This document shows positions 1 to 23,743 of a stretch of 64,000 bases of DNA, piece by piece; the first letter of the stretch is position 1; the number at the start of each line of letters is the position of its first letter. Source of the DNA: Escherichia coli (lineage in GTDB: Bacteria; Pseudomonadota; Gammaproteobacteria; Enterobacterales; Enterobacteriaceae). The notes below the pieces were generated by a model, which saw only the letters and a program-made list of their open reading frames with translations, ran no database searches and was not told the DNA's origin. The stretch is taken from assembly GCF_013315695.1 (NCBI RefSeq), contig NZ_CP054353.1, one strand, 5' to 3'. The position numbers and the translations under genes were made by a program.

Positions 1-2911
1 AAGAGGGACGCCAGCGCAACAGGCCATCCGGCTGCACCTGCGGCAACCAGCCAGTTATCTGCACACCGTTGCAGGCGAGATCAATCTCCATACTCTGCCC
101 TGGCTGGCGACAGGCAATGACTCTGTCGGCAAGTTGCTGCATCTCCTGACACTGCGTTTCCCAGAAAATTTCACCAAAGGCACCATACGGCAAATCACCT
201 GCCGCCCGGAATCGGCGGAACAAGCGTTCGGCATCATCCTGCTCAACCAGTGCATTTAATAACTGCTGGTTGATTTGATAACGACTAAGCCCTTCAAGAA
301 TAAAAGGTTCGGTGTCGGGAATTTCGCTGTCTTCGGTACGGAAGTTCACCTGCAAACGCATCTGGAAAAACGCCCGCACCGGATGCGCCCAGAATCGTTG
401 TAGCGTCTCCAGCGGCACGGTTTCCGGCAAGGTAAACGGCAGCGGCTGAACAAATTCAGAATGTGCTTTACCAGCCTGGCTGGCCGCAGGTAGCCACTCG
501 CGCGCATAGCTTTGTCGTTCGCCTGGCTGGTAGTTTTGTGGATCAAACGGCATTCGGGTATGGAGGCAAGTAAGATGCGCTTTTACCCTTGCCTCGCTTT
601 CATCACAGTTGAGCGCTTCATCTCCCGGTAGATAATGGCTTTGCCCGATGTAGTCGATCAGTTCCTGCACCAGTACCGACGGGAAACGTTCACTGTTATC
701 CTGAATGGAACGCCCGATATAGCTGATATAGAGTTTTTGCTGCGCGGAAATTAACGCTTCCAGGAACAGATAGCGGTCATCATCGCGACGGCTACGGTCG
801 CCACGCTTCGGTTTCTGGCTCATCAGGTCAAAGCCCAATGGCGCAAGCTGGCGTGGATAAACGCCGTCGTTCATTCCCAGCAGGCAAACCACTTTGAATG
901 GGATGGAACGCATTGGCATCAGAGTACAAATGTTAACCGGTCCGGCGAGAAAACGCTGGCTGATACGTTCCTGATCCAGGCGCTGTGCCAGTTCATCACG
1001 CAATAGTGACAGCGGCACCGCGTCGCCATACTGTGCACCTAAACCTTCGGCGATAATCGCCTGCCATTGTTGTTCGATCAGCGTCATCGCCGCTTCGGTT
1101 TCCGCATCCGGCAGGAAGAAGGCGTTGAGCATATCGCGACAAACCGGCAACCACTCTTCCAGCGGACGCTCCTGCGCCAGCCCGCGACGCCAGATGTTTA
1201 GCTGCATTAGCAGTGAAGCCAGATGCCCCACCAGTTCTGCAATTAAGCCGCTCGATTCATCATAAGGTAGAACCGATTGCCACTCGCCCTGCGCGCTCTC
1301 CATCGCGTAGCCCAGCAACATGCGCGTCAGGCCAAACCGCCAAGTGTGTTGACCGGTAGCGGGGAGTTCCAGCTCGCGAACGTTGTCGTCATCTATCCCC
1401 CAACGAATTCCGGACTCGTTGACCCACTGGCGTAAATAACGCAGCCCTTCTTCGGTGATGTCAAACCGCGCCGCCAGCACCGGCACATCCAGTAATGCCA
1501 GAACGTCCTCCGACACAAAGCGGCTGTCTGGCAACGATAACAGGCTGATAAACGCTTCAAGTACAGGATGCGACTGCCGCGCCCGACGGTCGGAAATGGC
1601 GTAAGGTAGGTAACGATCCGCAGGTGCGCTACCAAACACAGCCTGAATAAACGGACTGTAGCTGTCGATGTCGGCCACCATCACAATGATGTCGCGCGGA
1701 GTAAGTGTCGGATCTTCCTCCAGCATCGCCAGCAGGCGATCGTGTAAAACTTCAACTTCACGCTGTGGGCTATGGCAAACGTGGAAGGTGATACTGCTAT
1801 CCAGTGGATCAAGCGGGCGTTTGTTATCGCTACGGGAAAACTCTTCGATGTTCACACCAGCAACGGCGCGGTTTTCCAGTTCCAGAATGTCAGACTGAAT
1901 GTTATGCAGCAGGTTATCTGGCGTCACATCGACAAAAGCGTCCAGCTCCTGGCTGCTCTCCAGATCAGAAAGGAGATAAATGTAGTCGCGTCCAAGCTTG
2001 CCCCATGAGGCCAGCAGCGGGTTGCCGACATCCTGTTCACCATCGCTGTTAAAGAGCTGCCCGGCATTTTCGCTGTCGCGAAATAACGATAATTCGCGAT
2101 CTTCAAAACTGTGTCGGCGCTGGCGAGTCAGCAGTTTCGCCAGATAAGCAGGATCTTTAATGTCGCCCCAGTAATAACGGCAGGGGTTGGTAAACAGGAG
2201 ATGGATTTCAATATGTTTACCCAGCGCCTGTAGCGCCTGGAGATAAACAGGCGGTAACGCGGAAATACCGCATATAAAGACGCGCGAAGGTAGCCCCGGC
2301 GGGCAGGTCGTCGCGGACTCCAGCGTTTCGATAAAGCGCTGATAGAGATTGGCGCGGTGCCAGCGCGGTTGCCCGAGTTGATGGGTATATTCCACCAACG
2401 CCTTCCACAACGGCGCTTGCCAGGCCTGTGCTTCTCCCAACCCTTCTACCAGATGTCCTGTTTCCCACTGTGCCAGCCAGTCCGGACGATAGACCAGATA
2501 CTGGTCAAACAGGTCCGCCGCTTTTGAAGAAAGCTGGAACAGTTTTCGCTTGTCGCTATCGTCAGTCAGATAATGCCGCAACAGGGTAAAGTCTTCGCGC
2601 TCCAACAGTTGCGGCAGCAGAGTCATCAGTTTCCAGCTCATGCTCTGTTTGTTAAAGGCGCTCTCTTTGGGGATCTCCGGTAACACCCGGACGAACATAT
2701 CCCAGATAAAGCTCGCTGGCAGCGGAAAATCAATGTTTGCCGCAATACCAAACTTTTGCGACAGGGTCATTTGCAGCCACTGCGCCATACCGGTACTTTG
2801 CACCAGAATCATTTCTGGTTCGAAAGGATCGTCCAGCCGTTCGCGTTCGACGATAAACTCCATCAACGCTTCCAGCACGTCCAGACGATTGGAATGGTAG
2901 ACCCTTAACAT
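1..2911 (-). CDS. recC: RecBCD exonuclease V gamma subunit RecC, N-terminal ~970 codons (3-prime end lies beyond window start)
   Basis: Continuous minus-strand reading frame from ATG at 2909-2911 (translation MLRVYHSNRLDVLEALMEF...) running off the window edge; not in the ORF track because no stop lies inside the window; matches recalled RecC N-terminus and K-12 synteny (recC-ppdC-ygdB-ppdB-ppdA-thyA). Confidence 0.85.
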   Translation of the reverse strand, partial: MLRVYHSNRLDVLEALMEFIVERERLDDPFEPEMILVQSTGMAQWLQMTLSQKFGIAANIDFPLPASFIWDMFVRVLPEIPKESAFNKQSMSWKLMTLLPQLLEREDFTLLRHYLTDDSDKRKLFQLSSKAADLFDQYLVYRPDWLAQWETGHLVEGLGEAQAWQAPLWKALVEYTHQLGQPRWHRANLYQRFIETLESATTCPPGLPSRVFICGISALPPVYLQALQALGKHIEIHLLFTNPCRYYWGDIKDPAYLAKLLTRQRRHSFEDRELSLFRDSENAGQLFNSDGEQDVGNPLLASWGKLGRDYIYLLSDLESSQELDAFVDVTPDNLLHNIQSDILELENRAVAGVNIEEFSRSDNKRPLDPLDSSITFHVCHSPQREVEVLHDRLLAMLEEDPTLTPRDIIVMVADIDSYSPFIQAVFGSAPADRYLPYAISDRRARQSHPVLEAFISLLSLPDSRFVSEDVLALLDVPVLAARFDITEEGLRYLRQWVNESGIRWGIDDDNVRELELPATGQHTWRFGLTRMLLGYAMESAQGEWQSVLPYDESSGLIAELVGHLASLLMQLNIWRRGLAQERPLEEWLPVCRDMLNAFFLPDAETEAAMTLIEQQWQAIIAEGLGAQYGDAVPLSLLRDELAQRLDQERISQRFLAGPVNICTLMPMRSIPFKVVCLLGMNDGVYPRQLAPLGFDLMSQKPKRGDRSRRDDDRYLFLEALISAQQKLYISYIGRSIQDNSERFPSVLVQELIDYIGQSHYLPGDEALNCDESEARVKAHLTCLHTRMPFDPQNYQPGERQSYAREWLPAASQAGKAHSEFVQPLPFTLPETVPLETLQRFWAHPVRAFFQMRLQVNFRTEDSEIPDTEPFILEGLSRYQINQQLLNALVEQDDAERLFRRFRAAGDLPYGAFGEIFWETQCQEMQQLADRVIACRQPGQSMEIDLACNGVQITGWLPQVQPDGLLRWRPS

Positions 2912-2923
2912 AGCGGCTCCTGA

Positions 2924-3247
2924 CTACTGACGATTCGGGCAATGCAGGCGGGTCATCTCGCCTTCTCTGCCCCCGGGTGAAACTAGCGTAACGCTGATGC
3001 TGACACATCCCGCCTGCGATGTCTGCATTCGGTTGACCTGCCAGTTAGCAGGTGGCGAAATCGCGCGCAGTTGCGTTTGCTGCCAGCCATACCGCCAGAG
3101 CTGTTGGTACTGGTTTCTGCTGGCAAGACTGTTCATTAATGTTCGCTGGAAACCCGATAACGCAGTGACAATCATCACCATCAACACCATCGCCAACATT
3201 ACCTCCGGCAGGCTAAAGCCTTGTTGATTCTTCAGGGAAGCTGACAT
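2924..3247 (-). CDS. ppdC: prepilin-like protein PpdC
   Basis: Track ORF 2924..3334 trimmed to internal Met ([24 protein letters not shown]...), giving 107 aa with a type IV prepilin-like N-terminus (GFSLPE motif); synteny. Confidence 0.8.
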
Positions 3248-3639
3248 AACGCCCTCTCTTTCAGCGGACAAAAATCGCTCCAGCCGCGTGGCGAAAAAAC
3301 AATGTTTCCATCGATGACTTCGCCTGTTCGCCACAACGAAACGCCTTCATAACCGGCAATCAATAAGGCTTCATTATCTGCCAGTAAACGCAGACAAACC
3401 CGGGCACCGGTGGCAGCATACAGTAAGCACTGAACTGCGGGCTGCGTCTGCCAGGAGTGCATTTTTCCCCACTCCAGCGCCGACTGAACGATGGCCTGGC
3501 GGCGCAATGACTGACTTTCCATGCTCACGCGAGAGGCAAAACTGCGATCCTGTTGGCTCATTCCTTGTAATAGCAAGCTACCCAAAATCAGCAGCATCAG
3601 GACCAGAGCCAGTGACGAAACACCCTTTTCGCGGTTCAC
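3232..3639 (-). CDS. ygdB: DUF2509 protein YgdB (ppd operon)
   Basis: 135-aa ORF with hydrophobic N-terminus, located between ppdC and ppdB as in K-12. Confidence 0.8.
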
Positions 3640-19384: not shown

Positions 19385-19505
19385 AACAAACTCCAGATAA
19401 GTGCTTTTTTATGATTACGCCACATCATAAAAAGAATAAAAAATATCGATTTATGTCGAGTCTATGCAAAAATGATATGGATTACCGGATTGCGAGAGAG
19501 CGCTA

Positions 19506-20441
19506 ATGGCCGCCGTTAACTTACGTCATATTGAAATTTTTCATGCGGTAATGACCGCCGGAAGTCTGACTGAGGCGGCACACCTGCTACACACCTCACA
19601 GCCAACCGTCAGCCGCGAACTGGCGCGCTTTGAGAAGGTGATCGGGCTGAAATTGTTTGAGCGCATACGTGGGCGATTACATCCTACCGTGCAAGGACTG
19701 CGTCTGTTTGAAGAAGTGCAACGATCCTGGTACGGACTGGATCGCATTGTCAGTGCCGCAGAAAGTCTGCGCGAGTTTCGCCAGGGAGAACTGTCTATTG
19801 CCTGCCTGCCGGTCTTTTCGCAATCTTTTTTACCGCAGCTCCTGCAACCCTTTCTGGCACGTTATCCCGATGTCAGCTTAAATATCGTGCCCCAGGAATC
19901 ACCGCTACTTGAAGAGTGGCTCTCGGCCCAGCGTCATGATTTAGGACTCACTGAAACGCTCCATACGCCTGCGGGAACAGAACGTACCGAATTACTCTCT
20001 TTAGATGAAGTGTGTGTGTTACCTCCGGGCCATCCGCTGGCGGTAAAAAAGGTATTAACGCCGGATGATTTTCACGGTGAAAACTACATCAGCCTTTCCC
20101 GTACTGACAGCTATCGCCAGTTGCTGGATCAATTGTTTACTGAGAATCAGGTTAAACGACGCATGATCGTAGAAACCCACAGCGCCGCGTCAGTCTGCGC
20201 AATGGTACGGGCGGGGGTAGGCGTTTCGGTGGTTAACCCGCTCACCGCACTGGATTATGCGGCAAGCGGTTTAGTGGTGCGGCGGTTCAGCATTGCGGTT
20301 CCATTCACCGTCAGCCTGATCCGCCCCCTGCACCGCCCGTCATCAGCGCTGGTGCAGGCGTTTAGTGAGCATTTACAAGCGGGATTACCGAAACTGGTCA
20401 CTTCTCTTGACGCTATTTTGTCGTCAGCTACGACAGCATAA
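19506..20441 (+). CDS. lysR: LysR-type transcriptional activator of lysA
   Basis: 311-aa ORF with LysR-family HTH N-terminus, divergent from lysA. Confidence 0.95.
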
Positions 20442-21248: not shown

Positions 21249-22667
21249 TCAGACGCCGATATTTCTCAACTTTTCGCCTGCCATCAGTTTGCGCTCGATA
21301 TGTTCCAGCGTGACATTTTTGGTTTCCGGAATGAGCCAGAAAGTAATGCCCACAAACGCAATGTTCAGCGCAGTGTAGAGCCAGAACGTACCGGCAGCGC
21401 CAATGCTATCAAGCAGTGTCAGGAAGGTCGCGCCGATAATCATATTCGACACCCAGTTTGTCGTCGTCGAACAGGTGATGCCAAAATCGCGGCATTTCAG
21501 CGGCTGAATCTCAGAGCACAGGATCCACACCACTGGCGCGGCGCTCATCGCATAACCGGCAATACACATCATCGTCATGCCAACAGAGAGCCAGGACAAG
21601 CCACTGGAAGCCGTACCGTTATCAAACTGCATCAGGCAATAGCCCAGCACCAGAGTGCCTAACGCCATCACGCTGAAACCAATTTTCAGAGCCGGTTTAC
21701 GCCCTGCTTTATCTACCGTAAAGACCGCAATGAAGGTGGCGAACATAAAGGTCAGCCCCACGACCAGAGTCGCAATCATCTGTTGTTCTGTGGTCGTAAA
21801 GCCCGCCATTTTGAAGATACGCGGCGCGTAGTACATGATGATGTTCATACCGGTAAACTGCTGCATCGCCTGCAACAACATACCGAGAAACACAGCACGA
21901 CGGACGTTACGGTTGATCTTAAACAGTGCCCAACCGCCCTGTTTTAACTTCAGGCTTTCACGAATTTCGTTGAGTTCTTCTCGCGCTTTTTCCGACGTAT
22001 CGCGCAGCATACGCAATACTTCTTCCGCCTCAATATGACGCCCCTTTTCCGCCAGCCAGCGCGGGCTATTTGGCAGGAAGACCACCAGAATAATCAGCAG
22101 AACTGCTGGTAAAGCAAGAACCCCCAACATTGCGCGCCAGTTACCGCTATAACTGAACGCTGTATCGGATAAAAACGCCAGCACGATGCCGAGAGTGACC
22201 ATCAACTGGTACATGCTGATCATCTTACCGCGAACGTTTTCACTTGCCATTTCAGAAAGATACAGAGGAGCGGTGTAAGACGCGATCCCGACAGCAATGC
22301 CCAACACCACACGAGCGGCGATTAACATCTCTACGCTGGTCGCAAAAGCGGACCCTATCGAACCGAGTACAAACAGGATGGCCCCCGCCATCAGGCTGTA
22401 TTTACGCCCCAGGCGGAACGACAGCCAACCATTAAACAGCGCACCAATTGCTGCGCCGAGCATCATGCTACTGACCACCCATTCCTGCAAACGACTGGTC
22501 AGTACAAAGTGATCGGTAATGAACGGCAACGCTCCGGCGATTACGCCGATATCAAGACCAAATAACAATCCTGCGACCGCAGCAGCTACCGAAACAAACA
22601 TATTCATACGCCGCGTATCCCGCAAAGAACGTGGCGTTAAAGCAGATTCCGTATTGATAGTAACCAT
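21249..22667 (-). CDS. araE: arabinose:H+ symporter (MFS)
   Basis: Track ORF 21249..22796 trimmed to [42 protein letters not shown]..., 472 aa, sugar porter. Confidence 0.93.
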
Positions 22668-22739
22668 TTTTTCCTGCCAGCAGAGAGTAAGACATAGTGA
22701 AAAAATACGTGAACAATTCACACAGGTGTCAGGTCGGAA

Positions 22740-22920
22740 ATAGCATAAATATGGATTAAATTGCTGCGACATGTCGTTATGTGATGGATATTCCAATTTT
22801 CAAATTAAGTTGAATTATTGAGATTATTATTAACCAACTAATTTTAAAGCAGATAAAATTCATAAAGTTCACTAATTGATAATTGATATGGATTATTTCA
22901 TAACCATGATATGGATTATG
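22740..22920. promoter_or_regulatory. araE upstream region containing repeated TATGGAT-type motifs (candidate AraC half-sites)
   Basis: Four copies of (a/g)atatggat(t/a)a at about 22748, 22782, 22884 and 22907; the last two (tgatatggattat) are a 13-bp direct repeat spaced 23 bp apart; motif resembles the reverse complement of the AraC half-site TAGCATTTTTATCCATA. Confidence 0.4.
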
Positions 22921-22933
22921 ATGATCTGCAGGT

Positions 22934-22960
22934 ATAAAAAACCCTGCCATGCGGCAGGGT
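22934..22960 (-). terminator. rho-independent terminator downstream of kduD
   Basis: Hairpin accctgcc/ggcagggt preceded on the plus strand by an A-run (a U-tract on the minus-strand transcript). Confidence 0.6.
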
Positions 22961-22981
22961 CATAAAAGTAAGAAGAATGGA

Positions 22982-23743
22982 TTAACGAGCCAGCCAACCG
23001 CCATCCACGGCAATGGTATAACCATTCACATAATCTGAAGCACTGGAGGCAAGAAACACTACCGGCCCCATCAGGTCACTCGGCAGTCCCCAACGGCCAG
23101 CTGGAATGCGGTCGAGAATTTCCGCGCTACGTTGTTCATCTGCCCGTAGTTGTTGAGTATTGTTGGTCGCCATGTAACCCGGAGCTATCGCATTAACATT
23201 AATGTTGTGTTTAGCCCATTCATTCGCCATCAATCGCGTCACGCCCATCACGCCGCTTTTTGATGCGGTATAAGAAGGCACACGGATCCCGCCCTGGAAG
23301 GAGAGCATTGACGCGATATTGATAATCTTGCCGCCATTGCCTTGCGCGATAAAGTGTTTCGCCGCTGCCTGAGACATGAAGAATACGCTCTTGATATTCA
23401 GGTTCATGACATCGTCCCAGTCTTTTTCGCTGAACTCGAGAGCATCTTCGCGGCGAATCAATCCGGCGTTATTCACCAGGATATCAATATGACCAAACTC
23501 AGCTACCGCGCGATCCAGCAGTGCTGGAATGCCATCAATCTTTCGCAGATCGGCGGTCAGGCTTAAAAAACGACGCCCCAGCGCCGTGACCTGCTTGATG
23601 GTTTCAGTCGGTTCAACGATGTTAATGCCAACAATGTCACAGCCCGCTTGCGCCAGCCCCAACGCCATCCCCTGGCCCAGTCCAGTATCACAACCAGTGA
23701 CGACCGCAACTTTACCTTCGAGAGAAAATGCACTTAAAATCAT
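22982..23743 (-). CDS. kduD: 2-dehydro-3-deoxy-D-gluconate 5-dehydrogenase (SDR)
   Basis: 253-aa short-chain dehydrogenase ORF (TGCDTGLGQGMALGLA Rossmann motif). Confidence 0.95.
   Translation of the reverse strand: MILSAFSLEGKVAVVTGCDTGLGQGMALGLAQAGCDIVGINIVEPTETIKQVTALGRRFLSLTADLRKIDGIPALLDRAVAEFGHIDILVNNAGLIRREDALEFSEKDWDDVMNLNIKSVFFMSQAAAKHFIAQGNGGKIINIASMLSFQGGIRVPSYTASKSGVMGVTRLMANEWAKHNINVNAIAPGYMATNNTQQLRADEQRSAEILDRIPAGRWGLPSDLMGPVVFLASSASDYVNGYTIAVDGGWLAR

Follow-up and report, generated by a model that had tools for sequence, protein, structure and literature searches.

Two conserved distal AraC-type half-site candidates upstream of the araE promoter in core Enterobacteriaceae

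The kduD–araE intergenic region and the proximal araE promoter

The DNA described here, referred to throughout as the window, is a stretch of 64,000 nucleotides from Escherichia coli in which the gene order around araE (lysR-ygeA-araE-kduD-kduI) is the same as that of strain K-12. Over positions 22600-23050 the window is 100% identical to E. coli strain MS 21-1, in which kduD and araE are annotated. Of 5,423 complete E. coli genomes, nearly all match the same interval at 95-99% identity, and approximately 24 have no uninterrupted match there. The site of interest is the kduD–araE intergenic region. The ORF list, the identity with MS 21-1 and the K-12 annotation together place the araE coding sequence (an arabinose:H+ symporter of 472 aa) at 21249..22667 on the minus strand, with its ATG at 22667..22665 and its stop codon at 21251..21249, and the control region of the gene is therefore also read on the minus strand. 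On the kduD side, the stop codon that ends the coding region begins at 22982, and a terminator scan places the intrinsic terminator of this gene at 22930..22961 (minus strand; stem-loop 22961..22940, followed by a T-tail), which forms the upstream boundary of the araE control region.

We fetched 80 araE loci, one genome per species, and the counts given below refer to a set of 59 that comprises 58 loci from core Enterobacteriaceae and the window itself, either aligned with MAFFT or anchored on the I1 box. This set covers approximately 20 genera, including Escherichia, Salmonella, Citrobacter, Pseudocitrobacter, Klebsiella, Raoultella, Kluyvera, Enterobacter, Lelliottia, Leclercia, Huaxiibacter, Kosakonia, Phytobacter, Siccibacter, Superficieibacter and Pseudescherichia.

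At 22750..22766 (minus strand) lies an I1 AraC half-site, CAGCAATTTAATCCATA, composed of the A-box AGC and the B-box TCCATA. It scores 27.4 bits, against 22.9 for the I1 of araBAD, on a position weight matrix that was built from I1 sites only, is strong for I1 alone and rejects even araO2 and I2, and that was used in this work for part-scores and not for yes/no detection. A sequence-only reading of this DNA had likened the element to an araI1 half-site, and on the araE strand it is indeed a canonical one; the copy of the repeated motif that it contains begins at 22750, one position before the 22751 given in that reading. Across the 59 loci, A(-10), G(-9) and C(-8) of I1 are invariant or nearly so (AGC in 58-59), and the B-box is TCCATA in 51 and TCCATG in the other eight. 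Twenty-one bp downstream, at 22729..22745 (minus strand), the sequence offers an I2-like AraC half-site, TGCTATTTCCGACCTGA, which coincides with the conserved block TTTCCnGCCTGACAC of the 59-locus alignment and resembles the I2 half-site of araBAD, TAGCGGATCCTACCTGA (PMC2893085). Its CCTGA end overlaps a -35-like CTGACA at 22727..22732 (minus strand), an arrangement like that of pBAD, and the distance from the TCCATA of I1 to CTGAC is 23 bp in every one of the 59 loci. By analogy with pBAD, the TATTTT at 22702..22707 (minus strand) is the putative araE -10 hexamer; it occupies a conserved block of the alignment at the appropriate position relative to CTGACA, and its cross-species consensus, TACTTT, is similar to the TACTGT of pBAD. 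Between these hexamers, at 22711-22725 on the minus strand, the window reads TGTGAATTGTTCACG where K-12 reads GCGTGAGTTGTTCACG; the two SNPs give rise to a GTGAA/TTCAC inverted repeat, which is CRP-site-like but has a spacer of 5 bp, not 6.

Upstream of I1, the core TGTGATGGATATTCCA at 22780..22795 (plus strand) falls within a highly conserved block, (A)TGTCCATCACA, and is a candidate CRP site by virtue of its fit to the consensus TGTGA-N6-TCACA and of the known araE promoter architecture. The distance from this box to the I1 box is 31 bp in 59/59 loci. Stoner and Schleif are said to have described an AraC-plus-CRP architecture at pE in 1983, and the proximal AraC/CRP activation site of araE is the part of our findings that was already known.

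Two distal boxes downstream of the kduD terminator

Between the CRP-like site and the kduD terminator lie two further AraC-type half-site candidates, both on the minus strand. The nearer, D2 (TTATGAAATAATCCATA, 22887..22903), has a full B-box and no A-box, and its box is 137 bp upstream of the I1 box; the farther, D1 (GATCATCATAATCCATA, 22910..22926), has a full B-box and an A at -10 but no AGC, and stands 23 bp beyond D2, at a distance of 160 bp from the I1 box. Each bears an exact TCCATA on the araE strand in the orientation of I1. A 13-bp direct repeat, TGATATGGATTAT, that had already been pointed out is present, as described, at 22884-22896 and 22907-22919, 23 bp apart. Four copies of a TATGGAT(T/A)(A/T) motif had also been counted upstream of araE. 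Exact TATGGATWW occurs there three times, at 22750-22758, 22887-22895 and 22910-22918 on the plus strand and in each case as TATGGATTA, and a fourth copy can be had only by allowing one mismatch, either as GATGGATAT at 22783, within the CRP-like site, or as AATGGATTA at 22976, just past the end of the kduD coding region.

A TCCATA with a single additional A carries little information, and a match in one genome proves nothing. Over the whole window, TATGGATWW occurs nine times against 2.0 +/- 1.3 expected from shuffles, none of 100 of which reached nine; three of these matches are packed into 170 bp. Among the six others is an exact TATGGATTA at 19476-19484, 22 bp upstream of the start codon of lysR (ORF 19506..20441), which probably arose by chance or belongs to the control region of lysA-lysR.

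Related species had been named as a check on the motifs, and there the distal boxes are retained without exception: all 59 core loci carry two araE-strand TCCATA/TCCATG boxes just downstream of the terminator of the upstream gene, at fixed spacing. D1 reads TCCATA in 59/59 and TCCATAT in 57/59, and D2 reads TCCATA in 51/59 and TCCATG in 8/59, the same tally as that of the I1 B-box. The alignment holds approximately 2 bits per column at D1 and D2, as it does at I1 and the CRP site, and approximately 0-0.6 in the spacer. Furthermore, the flanks are alike, with a purine at -1 in 59/59 loci at D1, 57/59 at D2 and 59/59 at I1, and A/T at -2 to -4 common to all three. The A-box, (T)AGC at -11..-8, is absent from both distal boxes (GATC at D1 and TTAT at D2 in the window); across species, remnants of it are seen at D1, with A(-10) in 49/59 and T(-9) in 47/59, and none at D2.

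Given this pattern, D1 and D2 almost certainly constitute a functional cis-element. The region is AT-rich, the motifs are short and TATGGATWW recurs six more times in the window, all of which would suit a chance repeat without function; that reading is effectively refuted by the conservation, both boxes standing at fixed positions in 59/59 loci from some 20 genera while the spacer has diverged to near-random identity.

The boxes belong to the control region of araE and not to kduD. In most loci the end of the terminator T-run is 17-20 bp from D1, and we considered whether D1 and D2 might be a feature of the kduD 3' end. This was rejected, as it is the distance to araE, and not that to the terminator, which is kept when insertions intervene or kduD is missing: insertions have pushed the terminator 45-100 bp away from D1 in some loci with no change in the distance from D1/D2 to I1, and that distance is likewise unchanged in K. 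indica and Phytobacter, whose upstream DNA is unlike the end of kduD and shows no terminator-like T-run. The locus of Salmonella enterica subsp. arizonae contains REP-like palindromes 100-200 bp upstream of D1, ahead of the terminator, and still keeps the layout of terminator, 18 bp and D1. A reading of the boxes as IHF or DnaA sites was also set aside, the fit to their consensus sequences being poor by eye and not conserved.

In loci that do not belong to the core group, the distal region holds a single TCCAT box, at 150-154 bp from I1, in Franconibacter, Cedecea, Mangrovibacter and Buttiauxella, and no distal box was found upstream of araE in the Mixta, Erwinia, Rosenbergiella and Pluralibacter loci examined. 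One Mixta sp. locus carries more than ten tandem copies of the heptamer CAGTCCG approximately 150-260 bp upstream of its araE homologue.

Spacing between the distal boxes and the promoter

The spacer between the CRP site and D2 (22796..22886) is conserved in length and not in sequence. Over 90 bp and 13 genera, its mean ungapped identity is 0.40, against 0.32 expected from composition. Nonetheless, D2 lies 106-108 or 96-98 bp from the CRP box and, measured box to box, 137-139 bp from I1 in 46 loci and 127-129 bp in the remaining 13. The spacing of the direct repeat had been thought close to the 21-bp periodicity of AraC half-sites. It is not: D1 and D2 are 23 bp apart in 58/59 loci and 33 bp apart in the one exception, a Raoultella MAG, whereas I1 and I2 are separated by 21 bp in all 59.

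A neighbour-joining tree of AraE resolves how these lengths arose. The 129-bp class forms one clade of Klebsiella, Raoultella and Kluyvera (-9 bp), and Phytobacter, at 127 bp (-11 bp), is nested in a Kosakonia clade of 138 bp; the third independent event, of +10 bp, falls between D1 and D2. Three events of -9, -11 and +10 bp, in loci that otherwise vary by ±1 bp, argue that only indels of ±1 bp or of about one helical turn have been accepted in approximately 100 bp of otherwise unconstrained DNA. The distance from D1 and D2 to the complex of CRP, I1, I2 and RNA polymerase has changed only by ±1 bp or by whole helical turns.

This record also bears on the proposition that the element is some other feature altogether, be it a second araE promoter farther upstream, a small RNA or an ORF of 57 codons (22777..22950). 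The mechanical ORF does span the region, and a weakly conserved, TAAAAT-like AT-rich block is present in the spacer. Against these, the 9-11 bp indels and the unconserved spacer exclude a conserved ORF, the region has no Rfam match at E<=1, and the distal region contains no sigma-70-like promoter on the araE strand, the -10-like block being inconsistent in position in the Klebsiella/Kluyvera class. We regard any such feature as highly improbable.

The spacer is not always left intact. E. coli TUM9757 has an IS1A between D2 and the CRP site (positions 2797-3494 of our locus L087, corresponding to about 22840 of the window), which adds at least 0.7 kb to the distance between the distal boxes and the promoter, given a transposase ORF that by itself measures 698 bp; the arrangement of D1 and D2 is thus dispensable for viability. 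Within the spacer of the 138-bp class, approximately 40-60 bp downstream of D2 (window ~22835-22850), there is an AT-rich block, cTTnAAAATTAg...TTAAT, of moderate conservation (1-1.5 bits), and some loci of the Enterobacter clade have an additional ATCACA approximately 25-30 bp after D2. Such sequences might act as a bend, as a site for a nucleoid protein or as a weak second CRP half-site.

Likeness to araO2 and a possible AraC loop at araE

The AraC operator known to loop, araO2, offers the closest comparison for D1 and D2. In K-12 it reads GAAACCAATTGTCCATA, on the same strand as the araBAD I1 box and 211 bp upstream of it. We fetched the araC-araB intergenic region of six further genera by way of their AraC orthologues, and in all seven genera O2 is TCCATA and the O2-I1 distance is 211-212 bp despite a highly diverged interior. 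O2 and I1 have only xAxxxxxxxxxTCCATA in common (PMC11983282). D1 fits this pattern, in the orientation of I1 and more than 100 bp upstream of it, and D2 fits it in the B-box only; in many genera D1 is CA(A/T)TTGTCCATAT, the O2 sequence. On the I1 matrix, read for its part-scores, O2 (-3.0), D1 (5.3) and D2 (6.3) all obtain the full B-box score (11.7) and fail at the A-box; araO2, which is a validated half-site, also has no AGC (GAAA). The distal boxes thus share with araO2 a TCCATA that is not accompanied by an A-box, the A(-10) in the case of D1, the orientation of I1, a CRP site in between, and a distance to I1 that is locked while the interior diverges. There are differences, however. araE has two boxes 23 bp apart and not one, the loop would be 127-162 bp as against 211-212 bp, and araO2 is situated in the araC leader, whereas D1 and D2 are in intergenic DNA beyond a terminator.

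With the araI site (I1-I2) of pBAD and the proximal araE site, the distal pair has in common that it consists of direct-repeat AraC boxes with an identical I1 B-box. It differs from them in its 23-bp separation, where I1-I2 is 21 bp, in having no A-box, where the AGC of I1 is invariant, and in abutting no -35. The separation of 23 and not 21 bp implies that the pair is not a canonical full site of the I1-I2 type, and the want of an AGC A-box implies that each box resembles the lone half-site araO2 and not araI. It had been suggested that araE possesses an additional AraC-binding element, possibly a distal operator-like site, and the conserved boxes at fixed spacing in 59/59 core loci are in keeping with this in so far as a full site of the I1-I2 type is not meant by it. 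The regulatory loops of lac O3/O2, gal OE-OI and deo are comparable in that a weak distal operator stands at a phase-constrained distance from a primary site; they involve another protein family, whereas AraC loops by means of one dimer touching two half-sites.

Judged from these likenesses, the protein that recognises D1 and D2 is probably AraC. The boxes could instead be read by another protein, such as a nucleoid protein or another AraC/XylS-family member (e.g. XylR, acting in cross-regulation between arabinose and xylose), with the likeness to the AraC B-box being coincidental. Only 6-7 bp are conserved per box, the A-box is missing and a 23-bp spacing is atypical for AraC, all of which would accommodate this. 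Yet the hexamer, its orientation and its flanks (purine at -1, A/T at -2 to -4, T at +7) are those of araE I1 and araO2, the XylR-controlled xylA promoter region of K-12 has no TCCATA direct repeats, and we know of no other enterobacterial regulator that recognises such repeats. We consider a different protein distinctly improbable.

On the assumption that AraC is the protein, D1 and D2 might together bind one dimer as a separate upstream full operator that does not loop to I1, in the manner of araO1 or of the upstream AraC sites of araFGH. Such an operator might, for example, raise the local concentration of AraC, assist activation by CRP and AraC, or block read-through from kduD, directly downstream of whose terminator the pair is located. 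The two boxes share an orientation and a fixed separation of 23 bp (33 bp in one lineage), and AraC binds direct repeats and tolerates approximately 11 extra bp between them (PMC2241862). In opposition to this are the 21 bp that separate I1 and I2 in every araE locus, the missing A-box, which would make for weak binding of a dimer, the single distal box of lineages that are not part of the core group, and the length-locked spacer of ~100 bp, whose ~10-bp jumps would be left unexplained. The upstream AraC sites of araFGH and araJ are reportedly footprinted full sites (Hendrickson, Stoner and Schleif, 1990). araO1 and these sites resemble the araE pair as extra AraC-type elements that an ara promoter carries upstream of its activating site, but they are full sites, whereas at araE the candidate sites consist of B-boxes alone at an atypical spacing. 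In our estimation, a non-looping operator is unlikely.

The match of D1 and D2 to araO2 in sequence make-up, orientation and evolutionary signature leads us to favour an O2-like reading, and on balance we lean towards D1 and D2 being auxiliary AraC half-sites of the O2 type that would let apo-AraC bridge to I1, poising AraC and limiting basal transcription. The looping function is the least secure step of this proposal. AraC without arabinose is found mainly on the well-separated O2 and I1 half-sites, with the DNA looped, and moves in the presence of arabinose to the adjacent I1 and I2 (PMC2241862). By extension to araE, in the absence of arabinose an AraC dimer would place one DNA-binding domain on I1 and the other on D2 or D1, and the closed loop of ~130-160 bp would keep AraC poised and basal araE transcription low; upon the addition of arabinose, AraC would move to the adjacent I1-I2 pair and activate with CRP, as it does at pBAD. 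AraC occupancy, looping and regulatory effect at D1 and D2 are all features that we infer from sequence and evolution. The missing AGC A-box and the separation of 23 and not 21 bp count against the proposal. With regard to helical phase, at about 10.5 bp per turn the distances of 138 and 129 bp correspond to 13.1 and 12.3 turns and the 211 bp of O2-I1 to 20.1, so that the phase of the araE boxes agrees with that of O2-I1; at 11.1 bp per turn, the value reportedly measured in work on the ara loop in vivo, they correspond to 12.4 and 11.6 turns against 19.0, and the phase disagrees. We would more tentatively put forward a wider scenario, for which we hold somewhat less confidence, in which an AraC loop controls araE as well, the tandem O2-like pair goes back to one ancestral half-site that stood ~150 bp upstream of I1, and the natural 9-11-bp indels are a record of a helical-phase requirement.

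One ChIP-qPCR study of cells grown without arabinose assayed six known AraC targets, the araE region being one of them, and all of the regions tested are stated to have given signal (PMC3738151). Primer JW073 of that study sits on I1, and a proximal amplicon of this kind cannot resolve 140-160 bp. Our full-text literature search, which included the literal distal and proximal sequences, returned no description of distal araE sites, with key older papers and the AraC ChIP-seq paper beyond its reach. As such a search stands, an O2-type auxiliary operator at a second promoter is probably previously undescribed.

AraC looping between araO2 and araI1 is, to our knowledge, a textbook case treated as specific to araCBAD; we likewise know of looping in the classical literature at araCBAD only, and of no report of repression of pE by AraC, which speaks against the proposal. 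If the proposal is true, a conserved, phase-locked, O2-like pair would imply that the promoter of the arabinose transporter is also poised or repressed by looping. This would bear on the basal level of AraE, and hence on all-or-none induction in arabinose systems and in pBAD expression strains, and the accepted indels (±1 or 9-11 bp) would constitute a clean natural dataset for loop geometry. The arrangement further suggests that ~260 bp upstream of the ATG should be included in ParaE reporter constructs.

Last, upstream of araF in K-12, the sole strong I1-type half-site is CAGCAGATTAATCCATA (24.7 bits). It lies on the strand opposite to that of araF transcription, the reverse of the orientation seen at araE and araBAD.
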